Positions 2,595 to 12,226 of a stretch of 64,000 nucleotides of DNA are shown piece after piece; position 1 is the first letter of the stretch; each line of letters starts with the position of its first letter. The DNA is taken from contig JAZAMN010000052.1 of assembly GCA_036229005.1 (NCBI GenBank), positions 256,001 through 320,000 on the forward strand, read 5' to 3'. This DNA comes from Myxococcota bacterium. Lineage in GTDB: Bacteria; Myxococcota_A; UBA796; CAJQPC01. The translations under genes were made by a program, and so were the position numbers. The notes beneath the pieces are model-generated. The model did no database searches. It saw nothing but the letters and a program-made list of their open reading frames with translations, and was not told the origin of the DNA.

Positions 2595-2691
2595 CGGCGG
2601 GGTCTCGCATCCACTAAAACCGGGCTCCATTCGTCTGCCGGATGGTCAGGCGCAAGCGCATTGGGGCATTCCCCGGGAGTGGTTGGAGTAC

Positions 2692-3963
2692 ATGGAACAG
2701 GCTGAACTGCTGGAAGCCTTCAAGGCGAACCTCGAGGAGTACGCCAAGCTCCGGACCTTCATCAACAGGGCTCGCGAGCAGGAGGGCAAGTTCTCCTCGG
2801 CGACCATTGAGAAGGTCATCATGAAGAACGAGATCGCTTCGATCGAGGTCGGGGACACGATCCGCCCTCAGGTCACGGAGATCGAGGGCCAGATCCTCTC
2901 TCTCAGCGGCCAGATCGAAGAGGTCAACTCCAAGAAGGCGTCCGCCGACGAGGAGATGGAGGAGCTCCAGCTCCGCCAGGCCATCGGTGAGCTCTCCGAC
3001 GAGGAGTTCGAGACCGAGGCCGCTTCCTTCAAGGAGGAGCTCGAGGCCGCCGGTCAGCGCCTCGAGGATCTCGAGTCCCAGCGCACCAACTTCTCCGAGG
3101 CGCTGGCCCTTTGGGTCGAGCTCGCCACCGACGCGGAGCACGAGACGGGTGTGAGCGGCTCCGAGCCCGAGCCTGAGCCCGAGCCCGAGTCCGAGGTTGA
3201 GGACGAGGTCGAGTTCGACGCCGGCCTGGATGAGGAGGGCGCTGAGGTCGAGTTCGAGGACGTGGCTGAGTTCGACGAGATCAAGCCCGCTCCCGTCGAG
3301 GACTTCGGCGAGAGCGACGAGGAGGTCCTGTTCACCGAGGAGCCCAACGACGACGGCGTGCACTCCAGCACCGAGCACATCCGTGAGGATCTCTCCGGTG
3401 TCTTTGGTGATGACGTCGCCGCCAGCGTCCGCGTGGGCGAGGAGGAGGAGGTCATCTCCATCGAGGCCGGCGAGGCCGCCGAGGACGCCGAGGACGGTGA
3501 GTCCGTTGACGTTGACTTCGGCTTCGAAGGGGACGAGGAGGACATCCTGGGCGGCGACGTCGAAGATGTCGAGATCGACCTCGTGGGCGATGCGGATGAC
3601 CTGGGTCTGGACGACGACGAGATCCCGGGCGCCGACGATGAGGCACCGGCCGCTGGCGACGACAACCGCCGCGCGCTCCTGATCTACCAGGAGGGCACCG
3701 CCGAGGAGCAGATCTACCCCTTCATGGGTGACACGTTGACCATCGGTCGCGGTCGGGACAACGACATCCAGATCAAGAACGACTCCAAGGTCAGCCGCTA
3801 CCACTGCAAGGTGTTCCGCCGCGGCGACAACTTCTACATCGAGGACAACAAGTCCTCGAACGGCTCCCTGGTCAACGGTGAGCTGATCACGGAGCGTCGT
3901 CTCTTCGGTGGGGAGGAGGTCATCATCGGAGAGACCTTCTTCCGGTTCCGCATCATGGAGTGA
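2692..3963 (+). CDS. Coiled-coil, acidic low-complexity linker and C-terminal FHA domain protein
   Basis: FHA motifs IGRGRDND, VSRYHC, EDNKSSNGSLVNG; heptad-like N-terminus; D/E-dominated middle; start may be TTG 2683. Confidence 0.85.
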   Translation: MEQAELLEAFKANLEEYAKLRTFINRAREQEGKFSSATIEKVIMKNEIASIEVGDTIRPQVTEIEGQILSLSGQIEEVNSKKASADEEMEELQLRQAIGELSDEEFETEAASFKEELEAAGQRLEDLESQRTNFSEALALWVELATDAEHETGVSGSEPEPEPEPESEVEDEVEFDAGLDEEGAEVEFEDVAEFDEIKPAPVEDFGESDEEVLFTEEPNDDGVHSSTEHIREDLSGVFGDDVAASVRVGEEEEVISIEAGEAAEDAEDGESVDVDFGFEGDEEDILGGDVEDVEIDLVGDADDLGLDDDEIPGADDEAPAAGDDNRRALLIYQEGTAEEQIYPFMGDTLTIGRGRDNDIQIKNDSKVSRYHCKVFRRGDNFYIEDNKSSNGSLVNGELITERRLFGGEEVIIGETFFRFRIME

Positions 3964-3984
3964 TCGCGCCTGGCGATCACTGAG

Positions 3985-4015
3985 ACGGGGTCCTCCGGGA
4001 CCCCGTTCTTGTCTC
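3985..4015 (+). terminator. Intrinsic terminator after the FHA gene
   Basis: Perfect 9-bp stem acggggtcc/ggaccccgt with a tccg loop, then tcttgtct. Confidence 0.7.
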
Positions 4016-4026
4016 TGGGGTTTCTC

Positions 4027-4569
4027 ATGCTCAGCGCTGCCCTGCAGGACCCGACCTGGGGTTCTTGGCTTCAACACGCGGCGGCCCAGGCCGGGGTCGA
4101 GCTCAGTCGGGACGACGCGCTGAGTTGGTGGCGCCGGGATCTCGTCCTGGTCGGGCCCGAAGCCCGGCTCATTCAGGCCCTCCCAAACCTCAGTGCGGTC
4201 TGGCTGCCGATGGTTGTTGGGGTGGGGGAGTGCCCCAGTGAGCCCGCCGCGGTGTGGTGCGAAGGCTGGCTGCGCGCGGGAGATGTCTCAGGTCTGGCTC
4301 GGCTGCTCCCGAGGGCTGCGCGGGCCGGAGCGCAACGCAGGACGCTCAGGCGCTGCCTCGCGCACGACCTGCGTGGGCCAATCGGTGTGGTGTCCGGGTA
4401 CTGCGAGCTGCTGTCCGAGCAGCTCCTGGGCGCCCTGGAGGAGAAGCAGCTCGGAGCGGTCAGCAAGATCCAGGACCAGAACGAGCGGCTGCTCAGAGCC
4501 ATGGAAGACCTCGCGCTGGTCGTTGGTCCTCCGGATGGGGTCACGGACCCTACGCGCCCGGCGGTGTAG
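4027..4569 (+). CDS. Protein with a HisKA/DHp phosphoacceptor helix pair but no ATPase domain
   Basis: H-box LAHDLRGPIGVVSGYCELL near the C-terminus; stop follows shortly after the second helix. Confidence 0.7.
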   Translation: MLSAALQDPTWGSWLQHAAAQAGVELSRDDALSWWRRDLVLVGPEARLIQALPNLSAVWLPMVVGVGECPSEPAAVWCEGWLRAGDVSGLARLLPRAARAGAQRRTLRRCLAHDLRGPIGVVSGYCELLSEQLLGALEEKQLGAVSKIQDQNERLLRAMEDLALVVGPPDGVTDPTRPAV

Positions 4570-4578
4570 ACTGCAGCC

Positions 4579-5178
4579 ATGGGTACCAAAGACTCCAGCG
4601 ACCAGCGCTTTCTGACGACCCACCAAGTCGCGAAGCTGTTGGGCGTCAGCCTGCCCACCGTCGTCAACTGGGTGAACGCCGGCAAGCTGAGCGCACACCG
4701 CACGCCTGGTGGGCATCGCCGCATCGCGCGCTCGGACCTGCTCCGCTTCGCGCGGGACTTCAACTATCCGCTGTCCCAGGACTTCCTGCGGGAGCTGGTC
4801 GGGACGCCCAGGATCCTGGTGGTGGACGACGAGGCCGACTTCTGCGAGATGGTCCGGGACTATCTGCAGATCAAGGGGCCCTTCGAAGTGCAGGTCGCCC
4901 ACAGCGGCTTCAAGGCCGGGCTCCGGGTCGCCACCTTCAAGCCGGACCTGATCCTCATGGACATCATGATGCCGGGCATGGACGGCTTCGCGGTGTTGCA
5001 GACGCTGCGAGACAGCCCCGACACCCGCGCCATCCCGGTGATCGCCTGCACCGCCTTCAAGGACCCTGAGATCGACGCCCGGATCGAGCAGGAGGACTTC
5101 AGCGGCTTCGTGCGCAAGCCTCTGCGTCTGGACGAGCTGCTCGCGGAGATCCGGTCCCAGCTCAAGCTGGAGGCCTGA
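4579..5178 (+). CDS. Response regulator: N-terminal excisionase/MerR-like HTH plus C-terminal receiver
   Basis: LTTHQVAKLLGVSLPTVVNW..G.L...RTPGGHRRI; receiver motifs VVDDE, LMDIMMP, CTA, RKP. Confidence 0.9.
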   Translation: MGTKDSSDQRFLTTHQVAKLLGVSLPTVVNWVNAGKLSAHRTPGGHRRIARSDLLRFARDFNYPLSQDFLRELVGTPRILVVDDEADFCEMVRDYLQIKGPFEVQVAHSGFKAGLRVATFKPDLILMDIMMPGMDGFAVLQTLRDSPDTRAIPVIACTAFKDPEIDARIEQEDFSGFVRKPLRLDELLAEIRSQLKLEA

Positions 5179-6012: not shown

Positions 6013-6116
6013 GGACAGCGCTCCAGCAGCGACTTCGTGTCGCCTTGGTGCCCTAACCGCGCAGACGTTTGACCGTCTCTGGGCCAGTGCCTACCATCAC
6101 CACCCTTGGAGCCCCA

Positions 6117-7988
6117 ATGCGTCCCCTGAGCTGGTCCGGCCTCTTGTCGTTGCTCGTGGTCTCGACCGCAGCGCAAGCGCAGGGTGCTCCCGAGCCGGAG
6201 GCAGCAGGAGAGGTGGGGCTGTCGGATGGCTCGCAGCCTCCGTCCTCACCCCCTCGCCGGGTGCCCATTCAGAGCCACGCAGAGGGCTGGGTGTGGCACG
6301 AGGTGCTGTCGACTCGGGCCGGCATGATGGACCTGGCTCAGGACCCCCAGCGCCCGACCACGCTGCTCGCGGTGGACCTGAACGGCGGTGTCTGGCGCAG
6401 CGATGATGGGGGCCGAAGCTGGACAGCGACCCTCGATGCGGCCGCGCAGGAGGTCCAGAACCTGGACCAGGAGGATCTGCTGCTGGAGGCGGAGGCCACG
6501 GCGCAGGACTTCCTGGACGACCAGGAGGTCGAAGAAGAGGGGGACTTTGACGACGAGTCTGAGCTGGTGGACGAGTTCTCCGTCTCTGCGGATCTGGTCG
6601 ACCTGATGGTCATGCGGGAGGGGGTCTCGCCGCAGGGGCCCTCCCAGCGGCTGGGTGGGGTCCTGTGGTTCCACCCTGAGCGCGGTGGCCTCGCGCTGCT
6701 CTCCCGGGCCGATGGGCTCTGGCGCTCCAACGACTCCGGCATGACCTGGCGCAAGCAGTCCGAGCTGTCCACCGCCACCAGCTTCACGCTCACACCCTCT
6801 GGCCTGCTGCTGGCTGGCACCTCGGACGGGGTCGTGTACAGCCGGGATCTGGGGGGCTCCTGGCGGCCCGCCACCGGCATCCCCACCGGGACGCGCGTGC
6901 GGGACCTCGCGGTCAGCGCTGGGCTCGTGCTCGCGGCGACCGACGAGGGCCTCTACCTGTCCGGAGATGGCTCTGCGTGGGCGCCGGCGTCGGGCTTTGG
7001 CGAGGTGAGGGCAGACCTCCGGGCCCTGGCGTCCGACCCGCGGATGGAGGGGGGGATCTGGATCGCGACCGACAACGAGGTCCTGCGCAGCGACGACGTC
7101 GGCCAGTCCTTGTTCGCGCTCTCCGGGACCCCGCTCCCGGACACGGAGAACCTTGTCCTCGCTGGCGGGGGGCAGCTCCTCGCAGCGACGAGCGATGGCG
7201 TCTGGGAGTCGGTGGACGGCGGCGTGGTGTGGCGCCCCGTGTCCTTTGGCCTCCCGGGCCCGCTGACCAAGGACATCCTGGCCGTGGCGGACGGCCTCGT
7301 TGTCGCCAGCGCCGACGGCATCTTCCTGCTCAAGCCCGAGCAGCAGAGTCAGGCCCACGTCGCCCCGGAGCTCGAAGGGCTCCCCCTGAACACCGTGGTC
7401 GGTATCGCGGTCACGAGGCCGGGCCTGGATCCCTACAGCTACGGCATCCGTCCGGGGGCGAGCTGGAGTCAGCGCCTGATCCCCAACCTGGTCGTCAAGG
7501 GGAACCTCACCGACCAGAGCGCGCTGGCTGCGGACTTCACGACCCCCACCACCGGCAGCAACTCCGCGGCGCTCCAGGAGCGCTGGTACGTCACCGCAGA
7601 GCTGCGCTGGGAGGGCTTCCGGAGCGACTACCAGTCCTCCGGGAGTGGGGTCGCGGACGGTGGAGACGCCTTCTACGTGGTGCAGGGCTCCGTGCTGTCC
7701 ACCACCGACCCGAACGCGATCCCGGTCGCGGCCGCGAACGTCCAGACCGCTGGGCTCAAGTACCAGCAGAACCTCACACGGCAGGTCGTCGACCTCTACA
7801 ACGCGCGCATGAAGCTCGTCTCCGAGCGCGCGGACCTGCCCCCTGACGACCTCCGAACCCAGACGCTCCACGAGCTCAAGATCCTGGAGACCACGGCGCT
7901 GTTGGATGCATACACCGACGGCGCCTACTCCGCTGCCCTCCAACCAGCGGGCCCCAGCCAAGAGGGCCCAACGGGAGAGACCCCATGA
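6117..7988 (+). CDS. Exported Asp-box (BNR/YCF48-like) beta-propeller protein with a C-terminal OEP/TolC half-repeat-like domain
   Basis: Signal peptide ending AAQA; repeats SDDGGRSW, SNDSGMTW, SRDLGGSW, SGDGSAW, SDDVGQSL, SVDGGVVW; C-terminus paralogous to the next gene. Confidence 0.75.
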   Translation: MRPLSWSGLLSLLVVSTAAQAQGAPEPEAAGEVGLSDGSQPPSSPPRRVPIQSHAEGWVWHEVLSTRAGMMDLAQDPQRPTTLLAVDLNGGVWRSDDGGRSWTATLDAAAQEVQNLDQEDLLLEAEATAQDFLDDQEVEEEGDFDDESELVDEFSVSADLVDLMVMREGVSPQGPSQRLGGVLWFHPERGGLALLSRADGLWRSNDSGMTWRKQSELSTATSFTLTPSGLLLAGTSDGVVYSRDLGGSWRPATGIPTGTRVRDLAVSAGLVLAATDEGLYLSGDGSAWAPASGFGEVRADLRALASDPRMEGGIWIATDNEVLRSDDVGQSLFALSGTPLPDTENLVLAGGGQLLAATSDGVWESVDGGVVWRPVSFGLPGPLTKDILAVADGLVVASADGIFLLKPEQQSQAHVAPELEGLPLNTVVGIAVTRPGLDPYSYGIRPGASWSQRLIPNLVVKGNLTDQSALAADFTTPTTGSNSAALQERWYVTAELRWEGFRSDYQSSGSGVADGGDAFYVVQGSVLSTTDPNAIPVAAANVQTAGLKYQQNLTRQVVDLYNARMKLVSERADLPPDDLRTQTLHELKILETTALLDAYTDGAYSAALQPAGPSQEGPTGETP

Positions 7989-8809
7989 CCGCCAGCCTGC
8001 TCCTCATCCTCGGCGTCCAGCTCGCCCAGCCCCTCCAGCTCAACCAGTCCGGGGCAGAGGCCTTCGCGCAGTTGGACACCATCGATCTGCCCACCGCCGA
8101 GGCCATCGTGTCCTTGCGCAGTGAGCGCGGACGCCTGAACTCCGTCGAAGAGCTGCGGGCCATTCCCGGGATGAACGACCAGCGCCTCAACGAGCTGCGC
8201 GTGAACACCTCGGTGGACCTGCAGCCCCTGGATGTTGGTGCGGCGCGCTTCTCCTCGGCTGACGAGGTCCTGGCCGCCTTCGACCACGAGCCCAGCGTGC
8301 AGGCCGTCCAGACCCTGGCGATGAACTACACGAACACCAACCGGGAGCAGGTGGAGAGCTGGCTGCGGGCCAGCAAGAACAGCGCCTGGCTGCCGGAGCT
8401 CAAGCTCAAGTACAACTACCAGGACACCTTCGGGCAGGACTTCGAGTACCAGGACCAGAACGACAACAACGTCGACCCCTTCATCGACGACTCGGACACC
8501 CAGCAGCGCTGGTATGGCCAGGTCGAGGTCCGCTGGAACCTGGACGAGCTGGTCATGTCCTCGTCCCAGATCCGCGTGATCTCGGAGGCCCAGGACGTCG
8601 TCAAGCTGCGGGACACGGTGCTCACTCAGGTCACCGGCCTCTACTTCGACCGCCGCCGCCTGCAGGTGGACATGCTCCTGGATCCCCCCAGCGATGTGCG
8701 CGCCCAGGTCGACCAGACCCTGCGCCTGATGGAGCTCACCGCCGAGCTGGATGCCTTCACCGGTGGGCAGTTCAGCGCAGAGGTCGCCCGGGGTGTGCAG
8801 ACCCGCTGA
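7985..8809 (+). CDS. Exported ComEA-like helix-hairpin-helix protein with a C-terminal OEP/TolC half-repeat-like domain
   Basis: LNQSGAEAFAQLDTIDLPTAEAIVSLRSERGRLNSVEELRAIPGM matches the ComEA HhH pattern; ATGA overlap with the upstream gene. Confidence 0.75.
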   Translation: MTASLLLILGVQLAQPLQLNQSGAEAFAQLDTIDLPTAEAIVSLRSERGRLNSVEELRAIPGMNDQRLNELRVNTSVDLQPLDVGAARFSSADEVLAAFDHEPSVQAVQTLAMNYTNTNREQVESWLRASKNSAWLPELKLKYNYQDTFGQDFEYQDQNDNNVDPFIDDSDTQQRWYGQVEVRWNLDELVMSSSQIRVISEAQDVVKLRDTVLTQVTGLYFDRRRLQVDMLLDPPSDVRAQVDQTLRLMELTAELDAFTGGQFSAEVARGVQTR

Positions 8810-10466: not shown

Positions 10467-11318
10467 CTACTCCTTGCTGGAGTCGGCGTCCGCTGCCAAG
10501 GGGAGCGCGTCGTCCGGGAGCCCCAGCCAGTCCAGGGCTTCCTGACGCAGAGCGCGGGCCACCAGCAGCGGGAGCTCGGCCTCGGTCGGGCTGCCCCGCT
10601 CCAGGTTGCGGCGGTAGACCCGCACCTGCTCTGGGGCGGTGGCCCAGGCCTTCTTGAAGCCAACGGGGGGCGGCGTCCCCTTGTACAGGGCGCCTGCGGC
10701 CGGAGACAGTGGCGGCTCCTGCGTGCGCAGCTCTTCGAGATCGGGGAGCCACGCCAAGGTCAGAGGCACCTTGATGAACCAGTCCCGGAGCTGCTCGGGC
10801 AGCAGGTCCCGGCCCAGGTCGAGGGCGCGTGTCCAGGTGGCCTCAGAGAAGGTCGGCGTGTAGGGAAAGTGCACAGGCTCCAGGCGGGCTGCCTGCCGAA
10901 AGGCGCGGTCCGCGTCCTCCAGGTGGCCCAGGAACTCCAGGCCCACGCCCAGGTAGTACCAGGCAGGCGCGAACGCGGGCTCCAGTTGGATCGCATGCTG
11001 GGCGGCCTTCACGCAGGAGTCCAGCTCGGTGAGCTCGAAGCTGGCCAGCGAGAGCCCGGCCCAGGCGCGGAGGTTGTCGGGCCCGAGCTGCAGAACATGC
11101 TCAAAGGCGAGCCGTGCTGTGGCGTAAGCCCCGACCTCGAGGCTGGCCTCGCCGACCACCAGGAGGGCGTCGACGTTGTCGGGATCGTCGTCGAGCAGCT
11201 CCTCCGCTTCGGTGATCGCCTCGTCGACCTGTCCCTTCTCGAAGGCGTCCGCAGCGCGGCGCAGCCGGAGCTCATCCAGCCCGCCGAGCTCGTTGGCCCA
11301 AGCGCTCCAGTCCATCAC
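10467..11318 (-). CDS. TPR repeats plus a minimal zincin-like domain lacking the HExxH motif
   Basis: About four TPR-like units, then LYKGTP..VRVYRRNLER..EL...VARALRQEALDWLGL. Confidence 0.65.
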   Translation of the reverse strand: MMDWSAWANELGGLDELRLRRAADAFEKGQVDEAITEAEELLDDDPDNVDALLVVGEASLEVGAYATARLAFEHVLQLGPDNLRAWAGLSLASFELTELDSCVKAAQHAIQLEPAFAPAWYYLGVGLEFLGHLEDADRAFRQAARLEPVHFPYTPTFSEATWTRALDLGRDLLPEQLRDWFIKVPLTLAWLPDLEELRTQEPPLSPAAGALYKGTPPPVGFKKAWATAPEQVRVYRRNLERGSPTEAELPLLVARALRQEALDWLGLPDDALPLAADADSSKE

Positions 11319-11344
11319 GCTGCCTCCAAGACAGAGGCTGCCCT

Positions 11345-12226
11345 CTATCGGAGGAAGAACACCACAGCCACGGCAACGAGCATGAAGATGAACACGGCTG
11401 CGGCGATCAGGGGCGTCTTGGACTTGCCCCCCGCCTCTGCGGCAGGCGCGGCGGGGGCGTTCTCCTTGGGCGCCGGAGCGTCGGCGACCTTGGGTGCGGG
11501 GGTGGGCTCAGGCTCGGGGACCTTGTAGCGGGCGTAGGCGCCGCCGCGGAGGGCCAGCGCGAAGGCCGCGAACTCGGCGATGTCCTTGCAGAGCACCAGG
11601 TCGGAGAGCATCCAGGTCTCGAAGGCCTGCTCCTCCTTGCCCTCGCTCATGCGACCGCCCTCGTAGAGGGGGAGCGGGCCCCAGTCCAGGTTGGCCTTCT
11701 CCGGCACCTCGGTGAAGGCGACGCCGGCCTTGTCGCGCAGCGCACGCTTGAGCGCGTAGCGGGCCTGCAGCACGGCCAGGGGGTAGCCGCCCGCGGCGTC
11801 GGAGACCGTCTTGACCTCCTCCAGGCTGCTGGAGGTGTCGAAGCTCAGGGCCAGGAGCTGGCGCTGCTGCGGGGTCAGGTGTGGAGCGACCTGCTGGAGC
11901 AGCTCTGTGGGGCTGCGCTGACCGGTCAGGGCGTTGGGGTGATCACCACCCTGGACGCGGCCGCCGGCGACCTGGATCTCCTCGGCGATGATGCCGTGCG
12001 CCCAGCCCGGGAGCTGACGGGCCTCGGTCACCGAAGCCACGCCCTGTGCGAAGCGCTGGCAGGCCCGCTCCAGCGGGCTGCGGCAGTTCCGATCCCCAAG
12101 CCGGGAGGCGGAGATGGCGTAGTACCAGTCGGAGAATCGCTGCGCCATGACCTGTCCGGCCTGCGCGTCCCCCGAGCGCCACTTGTTGAAGAGCTGTTGG
12201 GTGGTCTGCCCGGCCAGATCCGACAT
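11345..12226 (-). CDS. Divergent ECF sigma-like protein fused to an anti-sigma-like segment and a C-terminal TM anchor
   Basis: WRSGDAQAG..W.HGI (sigma2-like); LTPQQRQLLAL..SLEEV..QARYALKRAL (sigma4-like); LPLYEGGRM..E.W...D..C; Pro/Ala linker; C-terminal hydrophobic helix. Confidence 0.55.
   Translation of the reverse strand: MSDLAGQTTQQLFNKWRSGDAQAGQVMAQRFSDWYYAISASRLGDRNCRSPLERACQRFAQGVASVTEARQLPGWAHGIIAEEIQVAGGRVQGGDHPNALTGQRSPTELLQQVAPHLTPQQRQLLALSFDTSSSLEEVKTVSDAAGGYPLAVLQARYALKRALRDKAGVAFTEVPEKANLDWGPLPLYEGGRMSEGKEEQAFETWMLSDLVLCKDIAEFAAFALALRGGAYARYKVPEPEPTPAPKVADAPAPKENAPAAPAAEAGGKSKTPLIAAAVFIFMLVAVAVVFFLR

Follow-up and report, generated by a model that had tools for sequence, protein, structure and literature searches.

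The A/B locus

A Myxococcota genome (assembly GCA_036229005.1), of an uncultured lineage judging by the names of homologs, carries two overlapping genes, A and B, whose products share a C-terminal domain resembling half of the outer-membrane channel protein TolC. Both lie in the window, the whole 64,000-nucleotide stretch analyzed here (contig JAZAMN010000052.1, positions 256,001 to 320,000, forward strand), to which coordinates refer unless another locus is named. This half-OEP domain is real, conserved and undescribed, and probably a variant of the TolC building block. An earlier sequence-only reading had called two open reading frames (ORFs) here, and both are present. The start of gene B overlaps the stop of gene A in an ATGA at 7985-7988, the motifs quoted for both C-termini occur in the translations, and a GGAG precedes each ATG by 5-7 bases. 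Signal peptides of both proteins were judged by eye. The locus comprises the following features:

6108..6111, plus strand: likely ribosome-binding site GGAG of gene A, from the sequence
6117..7988, plus strand: gene A, 623 amino acids (aa); likely signal peptide, beta-propeller and a single OEP-like repeat with an insertion
6270..7346, plus strand: BNR/Asp-box beta-propeller of gene A, Vps10/YCF48 type (aa ~52-410), from Pfam and Atlas models
7359..7946, plus strand: half-OEP domain of A (aa 415-610), with the hairpin at ~7479-7610 and ~27 extra residues right after strand 2 (~7611-7706)
7974..7977, plus strand: likely ribosome-binding site GGAG of gene B, within gene A, from the sequence
7985..8809, plus strand: gene B, 274 aa; likely signal peptide, degenerate HhH (helix-hairpin-helix) and a single OEP-like repeat
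8033..8200, plus strand: ComEA-like (HhH)2 fold of gene B (aa 17-72), without GIG hairpins and DNA-binding lysines, from Pfam HHH_3 (E 6.6e-7), VIA and residue counts
8240..8806, plus strand: half-OEP domain of B (aa 86-274), from AlphaFold2 models and the alternation of hydrophobic columns

The C-termini of A and B are paralogous, as the same reading had proposed. BLASTP aligns them at 27% over 161 columns (E 9e-10), and profile-profile comparison of the two domains with hhalign gives 99.4% (E 2.5e-21), a sequence kinship beyond chance. The source genome holds no third copy beyond A and B, and an NCBIfam scan of the two proteins returned no family reaching its cut-off.

The N-terminal domain of A belongs to a familiar propeller class. 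Pfam Sortilin-Vps10 and BNR match it at E 3e-4, under cut-off, Atlas propeller models match with features of 0.92-0.93 and template modeling (TM) scores of 0.65-0.70, and Asp-box motifs are visible in the sequence. The domain has the fold of YCF48, Vps10 (sortilin) and BNR-repeat propellers and differs from them in its fusion to a half-OEP domain and in a long acidic insert. Named Vps10/YCF48 propeller proteins are sorting receptors and assembly factors. The acidic stretch lies early in the propeller (6438-6611, aa ~108-165), and many A homologs carry similar inserts.

One TolC-like repeat per chain

Each chain carries a single OEP-like repeat, in agreement with the sequence-only reading. Two copies occurred in none of 282 ORFs; among the best 150 library matches, 147 contained one matched stretch and none of the other three contained two full copies. 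AlphaFold2 modeled the domain with mean predicted local distance difference test (pLDDT) scores of 89 for whole B and 87 for the isolated domain. In B it comprises helices at residues 105-116 and 120-133, a beta-hairpin at 138-183 (8396-8533) and helices at 193-232, 238-259 and 262-273, the last three being 40, 22 and 12 residues long in the domain model.

The hairpin has the pattern, as read from sequence, of an outer-membrane hairpin with an outward extension. Across 85 homologs the hydrophobic fraction is 0.92-1.00 at L54, L56, Y58, G93, V95, V97 and W99 and 0.05-0.27 at the positions between these outward ones. Strict alternation covers about eight residues per strand in the helix-proximal part and ends at a tryptophan that never varies. 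Farther out the hairpin is polar, and its net charge there is acidic in 79 of 83 B-type domains and 97 of 116 single-gene domains; among measurable A-type domains, just 15 of 32 are net acidic there. The ~27-residue insertion of A, absent from some distant A proteins, would by analogy lie on the periplasmic side. Its length comes from other alignments, because hmmalign fitted both anchors in only 37 of about 83 A domains and its measure is unreliable.

The proposed likeness to TolC is consistent across Pfam, Foldseek, Atlas and hhalign but weak in every one of these tests. Pfam OEP (PF02321) matches gene B only, at E 2.1e-4 and 21.6 bits against a cut-off of 22 (22 bits when run with neighbors). 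In Foldseek, TolC-family chains rank first for whole B (best E 0.007) and, when the isolated domain is the query, account for each of the first 14 rows listed (E 0.11-0.29), with TM-scores of 0.25-0.38 between the monomer model and TolC chains. An OEP cluster appears in Atlas at TM 0.58, last among nine rows. Aligned by hhalign to 17 TolC repeats of the source genome, the domain scored E 3e-4 to 3e-3 with probabilities of 12-41%; the B profile failed against TolC repeats in global mode and reached E 0.0026 in local mode. TolC was missing from the VIA-align results for both the whole model and the isolated domain; among 48,161 representatives the best matches were unrelated helical bundles (best Z 7.3), and such an absence is no proof of differing folds. 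A search of PDB chains with the domain profile found one chance match (E 0.28).

Alignment details are in line with the layout of the outer membrane factors (OMFs), the family of TolC. The hhalign alignment is colinear and broken once, by a gap of 33 columns where one long helix turns into the next. Conserved OMF marks match in position: the LP opening strand 1, the W-x-L ending strand 2 and the closing L-D-x-x-T-G-G motif. The Y135-E165 span measures 30-32 residues in all 83 B-type domains. In OprM, helices H3 and H4 have 67 and 36 residues and build a long coiled-coil tip, as given in section 6.2 of PMC8277102. Because of the 33-column gap and helices of 40 and 22 residues in place of 67 and 36, the domain lacks the tip with which OMFs gate their channel and bind the adaptor.

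We do not class the A/B domain as an OMF. Members of that family (TolC, OprM, VceC, CusC and MtrE) have the same order of elements per repeat (short helices, LP, two amphipathic strands, a long helix, a return helix and a closing glycine motif) and likely the same outer-membrane location, and some members of both groups are lipid-anchored. OMFs, however, have two repeats per chain where the A/B family has one, a helical tip about 33 residues longer, and usually an adaptor and pump encoded nearby, neither of which is linked to the A/B family. The latter in turn has a longer acidic outer hairpin, large N-terminal appendages and often two paralogous genes. The classification follows from three defining OMF features that the domain lacks: two repeats, a long tip and a linked adaptor. 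The literature searched, which held few subscription journals and excluded supplements, contained no description of a single-repeat OMF, in keeping with the earlier suggestion of a new system.

A widespread family with exchangeable heads

The domain defines a large family in diderm bacteria. A profile search returned 2,493 clusters at 50% identity (E <= 0.001), 1,720 of them at 1e-10. It occurs in 25 of 41 close relatives and 193 of 301 Myxococcota genomes, and in 93 of 101 Omnitrophota genomes, there always as one match, mostly fused to a propeller and down to assemblies of 0.7-1.0 Mb. Nitrospirota carry it sporadically (2 of 81 genomes). All named carriers are from diderm groups, and some have been cultured: Bradymonas sediminis and Lujinxingia litoralis appear in the NCBI names of proteins P0347 and P0359. 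None of 35 pattern matches in viral contigs was confirmed. Families f20 and f28 yielded none in 23 and 14 genomes, respectively, with five such genomes rechecked by scoring all candidates.

The coupling of the two genes is conserved, as had been predicted. Among the best 80 of 277 confirmed GTDB loci, 52 hold the pair and 28 a single gene; in 22 of the 28 the domain stands behind at least 329 residues, which proved to be BNR propellers in the four cases scanned. A further 79 distant loci, selected for spread from the 193 positive genomes, divide into 29 pairs, 27 single long genes and 23 single short genes. When genes upstream of seemingly lone copies were searched with a broader profile, a diverged or hairpin-only partner appeared in 8 of 12, and no reversed control fell under E 0.05. 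Genes of 160-205 aa containing only the hairpin part stand directly before a full short copy at L120:7057-7671, L130:7247-7786, L133:7323-7826, L151:4440-4922 and L170:5688-6230.

Omnitrophota loci show the same flexibility. The short form occurs in 4 of 40; in one of them a gene of its own upstream encodes the propeller, and a lipoprotein-type signal as in OprM is seen, by eye, in L224 and L233. Because the heads vary and no ORF holds two copies, the half repeat is the core of the family, with the propeller, HhH and lipid anchor as exchangeable heads. At L093:3358-5583, one open frame spans a lamin-tail domain, a PEP-CTERM motif, a propeller and a half-OEP domain, either as a fusion or as two in-frame genes.

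Gene neighborhoods

Lamin-tail domain (LTD) genes recur beside the family. In 39 of the 79 distant loci the next gene downstream, on the same strand, is of this kind: it follows 23 of 27 single long genes, 9 of 23 single short genes and 7 of 29 pairs. Nine genes of this type, six from the 79 loci, went into the LTD profile, and Pfam confirmed the domain in seven loci of the set. The encoded proteins are PEP-CTERM proteins or lipoproteins with Asp-rich, likely calcium-binding motifs. Given 19 LTD matches in the 6.4 Mb of the source genome and few in several carrier families, the association greatly exceeds chance, even though kin are counted repeatedly.

Nuclease and competence genes form a second, sparser set of neighbors. 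A gene for a ComEC-type metallo-beta-lactamase lies 1.0-2.0 kb behind the domain in seven loci, and Pfam identifies an endonuclease I behind the lamin-tail gene in L164, a gene that our phmmer probe, which gave no match, was too insensitive to find. TonB, ExbBD or a TonB-dependent receptor is encoded upstream in seven pair-type loci. In Omnitrophota, comM is directly upstream in 5 of 40 loci, and L096 has the order comEC-yraN-comM; YraN and ComM act in transformation, according to PMC13663708. For secreted DNases, PMC4486849 describes HhH and lamin-tail domains as alternative add-ons.

Two neighborhoods deserve separate mention. At L126:6083-11677, and also in L128, L137, L141, L143, L147 and L192, an operon encodes A, B, a multi-lamin-tail lipoprotein and a lipoprotein with a stand-alone ComEC-type metallo-beta-lactamase domain; some of these operons are preceded by a TonB-dependent receptor. 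This arrangement looks like a nucleic-acid utilization locus. At L203:7247-10801, some genes downstream of the half-OEP gene, stands a large gene whose product has Tc/RHS-type shell domains; L206 has a relative of it.

A proposed outer-membrane ring

We propose that A and B, like the single-gene members, probably form a pump-independent oligomeric ring in the outer membrane. A lone hairpin cannot close a membrane barrel, so single-hairpin chains would oligomerize into one. The simplest mixed ring, A3B3, would rebuild the 12 strands that three TolC protomers join into a closed barrel; single-gene forms would make homo-rings, and larger rings are possible. CsgG likewise builds one barrel from many small subunits. 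A complex prediction with three A and three B domains (trimmed, 999 residues) scored 0.00 in two runs, in which the partner fold was uncertain and the controls did not fold, a result that weighs neither for nor against a ring. If the topology of OMFs applies, the N-terminal propeller and HhH would reach into the periplasm around the equatorial belt, beside the shortened mouth; as a gate, the residues inserted behind strand 2 of A could take the place of the iris lost from TolC.

What the ring would do is more tentative. An inward feeding pore is the function we favor, though with less than even confidence, and nucleic-acid fragments as its particular cargo are a doubtful further step, suggested by the gene neighbors. 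In several lineages the lamin-tail surface protein would attach to the ring at its outer mouth, exported nucleases would cut the polymer, and the propeller would catch entering fragments. Lidded import and oligomeric export pores such as SusCD, BtuBG and CsgG-CsgF would share the principle of a membrane pore with a co-encoded surface partner, an analogy only, with no likeness found in sequence or fold.

Several observations weigh against this reading at its different steps. The TolC likeness on which the ring draws stays under every curated or customary threshold. LTD genes occur in 6 of 101 Omnitrophota genomes, compared with 93 carrying the ring gene, so the lamin-tail protein is no obligate partner; most Omnitrophota loci place the gene amid housekeeping genes that give no functional hint. 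The seven nuclease loci share one gene order and probably represent one lineage, as do most comM loci. ExeM without its lamin-tail domain is reported in PMC6085458 to keep almost all of its DNA-clearing activity in vivo, and because the domain is dispensable there, it is no proof of DNA handling. Finally, the acidic charge on the outer part of the hairpin would keep nucleic acid away in the absence of bridging cations.

Flow in the opposite direction is the first alternative. Here the ring would be an outward conduit for surface proteins, the propeller holding an unfolded chain, for instance a lamin-tail or nuclease protein from the genes behind it, that passes the short barrel and folds outside on calcium, like type I secretion cargo. 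The direct downstream genes fit such a cargo, being of surface type, with PEP-CTERM tails or lipoprotein signals and the Asp-rich motifs described above; the propeller class includes sorting receptors and assembly factors, and an acidic outer mouth could gather calcium. Against this, families f20 and f28 are LTD-rich (23 of 23 and 14 of 14 genomes) in spite of lacking the domain, no energy source is encoded nearby, and CTERM-tagged proteins of Myxococcus reach the surface by type II secretion, as PMC11980579 describes, a route for which the source genome has four secretins. Because of this use of type II secretion, we prefer the inward pore and consider surface-protein export unlikely. The broader idea that the ring is generally needed for lamin-tail export was set aside, weakened by the LTD-rich families without the domain, the Omnitrophota counts and the CTERM use of type II secretion.

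A ring with little or no flux would serve instead as a scaffold, anchoring periplasmic propellers, HhH domains and surface partners at the outer membrane for envelope integrity or cell contact in predatory or host-dependent bacteria. The near-universal single copy in Omnitrophota (93 of 101), retained in the 0.7-1.0 Mb assemblies, points to a core envelope role, and the appendages are freely exchanged (propeller, HhH, lipid anchor or none), with some partners reduced to the hairpin. The would-be lumen faces of the hairpin and helices are nevertheless polar and well conserved, as in a water-filled duct. No peptidoglycan-binding domain is fused in the nine carrier proteins with long N-termini that were scanned, and bamA is near the family genes in none of 199 loci. 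We regard a pure scaffold as improbable, on a par with the export conduit.

Less probable still is the absence of any membrane ring, with the domain a soluble or peripheral dimerization module whose hairpin packs on a partner and whose TolC likeness is superficial. It would account for structure and sequence searches that reach no significance against solved structures and for the low TM-scores to TolC (0.25-0.38, for the monomer). It sits poorly with a membrane-type alternation with aromatic ends kept across three phyla, with the LP, W-x-L and L-D-x-x-T-G-G motifs at the positions of OMF marks, and with named carriers that are all diderm.

The HhH domain and DNA uptake

The HhH of gene B has the fold of ComEA and lacks its DNA-binding signature. 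VIA aligns it to ComEA (8dss) with Z 9.7 and a root-mean-square deviation of 1.6 over 65 aligned residues. In ComEA of V. cholerae, K63E, K62/63A and G60E abolish transformation by the account in PMC3879209, and PMC9747964 presents the matching lysine of B. subtilis ComEA (K164) as central. Among 110 B homologs, the K63 position is K or R in none and the G60 position is D or E in 73. Intact G-h-G motifs remain in 12 and 7 of the 110, and the source genome's own ComEA retains them. Four arginines are instead near-invariant: R45 (106/110), R48 (109/110), R58 (110/110) and R72 (110/110). From sequence, another DNA-binding face of the HhH via these arginines is possible; alternatively, the acidic insert in the propeller of A could pair with them.

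Distribution marks the HhH as dispensable. Of the 52 pair loci 28 have it, and among the 79 loci from beyond the taxonomic order of the source genome it is never fused. Gene B shares the (HhH)2 fold with ComEA/ComE, the periplasmic DNA receptor, but is fused to a membrane-hairpin domain, has lost the GIG hairpins and the K62/K63 pair, and belongs to a family in which the HhH is optional; we do not class it as a ComEA. The HhH is a late, optional add-on and likely a contact surface rather than a ratchet.

The sequence-only reading had suggested for this domain the role of a tethered ComEA-type ratchet that would pull double-stranded DNA through the ring independently of secretins. Its favorable points are the ComEA-like fold, the arginines that could form another DNA-binding face, and the competence and nuclease genes among the neighbors. 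The key lysine and glycine positions are lost, however, the HhH is absent from 24 of 52 pair loci, the mouth is acidic, and a 12-strand barrel is narrow for duplex DNA. A complete ordinary competence set stands elsewhere in the genome, and because it includes a separate ComEA, ComEC and DprA besides the four secretins, the pair is not a stand-in for the secretin route. The ratchet is thus very unlikely; what remains is the looser nucleic-acid link through gene neighbors (exported nucleases, comM and lamin-tail genes). In the same genome, at G000:C31:245592-247195, an exported stand-alone ComEC-type nuclease gene is followed directly by a tandem-HhH comEA.

Absence of a linked pump

No pump or adaptor gene adjoins the pair, as first noted; the neighbors are xdhC (divergent) and guaA, a setting shared by close kin that gives no functional hint. 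An adaptor profile built from 11 adaptor genes of the source genome found a match near 1 of 199 loci, 4.3 kb off and beside its own two-repeat TolC. Ordinary TolC genes of the source genome have an adaptor within 5 kb in 9 of 11 cases. These counts concern gene linkage only, with flanks that vary in length and often stop at contig ends. That the ring is the exit duct of a pump or exporter encoded elsewhere, much as E. coli tolC is unlinked from acrAB, is hardly plausible: unlinked OMFs do exist and an RND gene lies directly upstream in the Omnitrophota locus L216, but the adaptor-binding coiled-coil tip is missing, the L216 operon has its own two-repeat TolC, and the source genome has about ten ordinary ones.

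Implications

Taken at its fullest, our proposal describes a living half-TolC: an unduplicated building block that persists as a separate pore class, assembles into homo- or hetero-rings gated by a plug or propeller in place of a pump, and takes up nucleic-acid fragments prepared by co-encoded lamin-tail proteins and nucleases in predatory or host-dependent bacteria. We would be surprised if all of these elements held together. The two repeats of TolC are held to stem from gene duplication (PMC8277102, section 6.2), and a large single-repeat family makes that pre-duplication state testable and shows that the fold can serve without a pump. PMC10066038 describes Omnitrophota as host-dependent and so far without isolates; present in single copy in 93 of the 101 genomes searched, the gene is a candidate for a core envelope function of the phylum. 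Being short and TolC-like, with periplasmic heads that can be swapped, such a ring would also be of practical value as a pore scaffold.

Other features of the locus

A marine metatranscriptome contains one 173-base contig that equals gene B with zero differences over 170 bases, a weak sign of expression, since DNA carry-over is possible. No other RNA contig fell on the pair, and the lack of cover on gene A carries no weight. Upstream of the pair, at 2683-5178, about 30 related loci share a block of genes for an acidic coiled-coil FHA protein, a small kinase-like fragment and an HTH-receiver protein. Downstream, at 10467-12226 on the minus strand, a TPR protein with a C-terminal zincin-like domain and a 293-aa gene of unknown type are conserved in more than 20 related loci.

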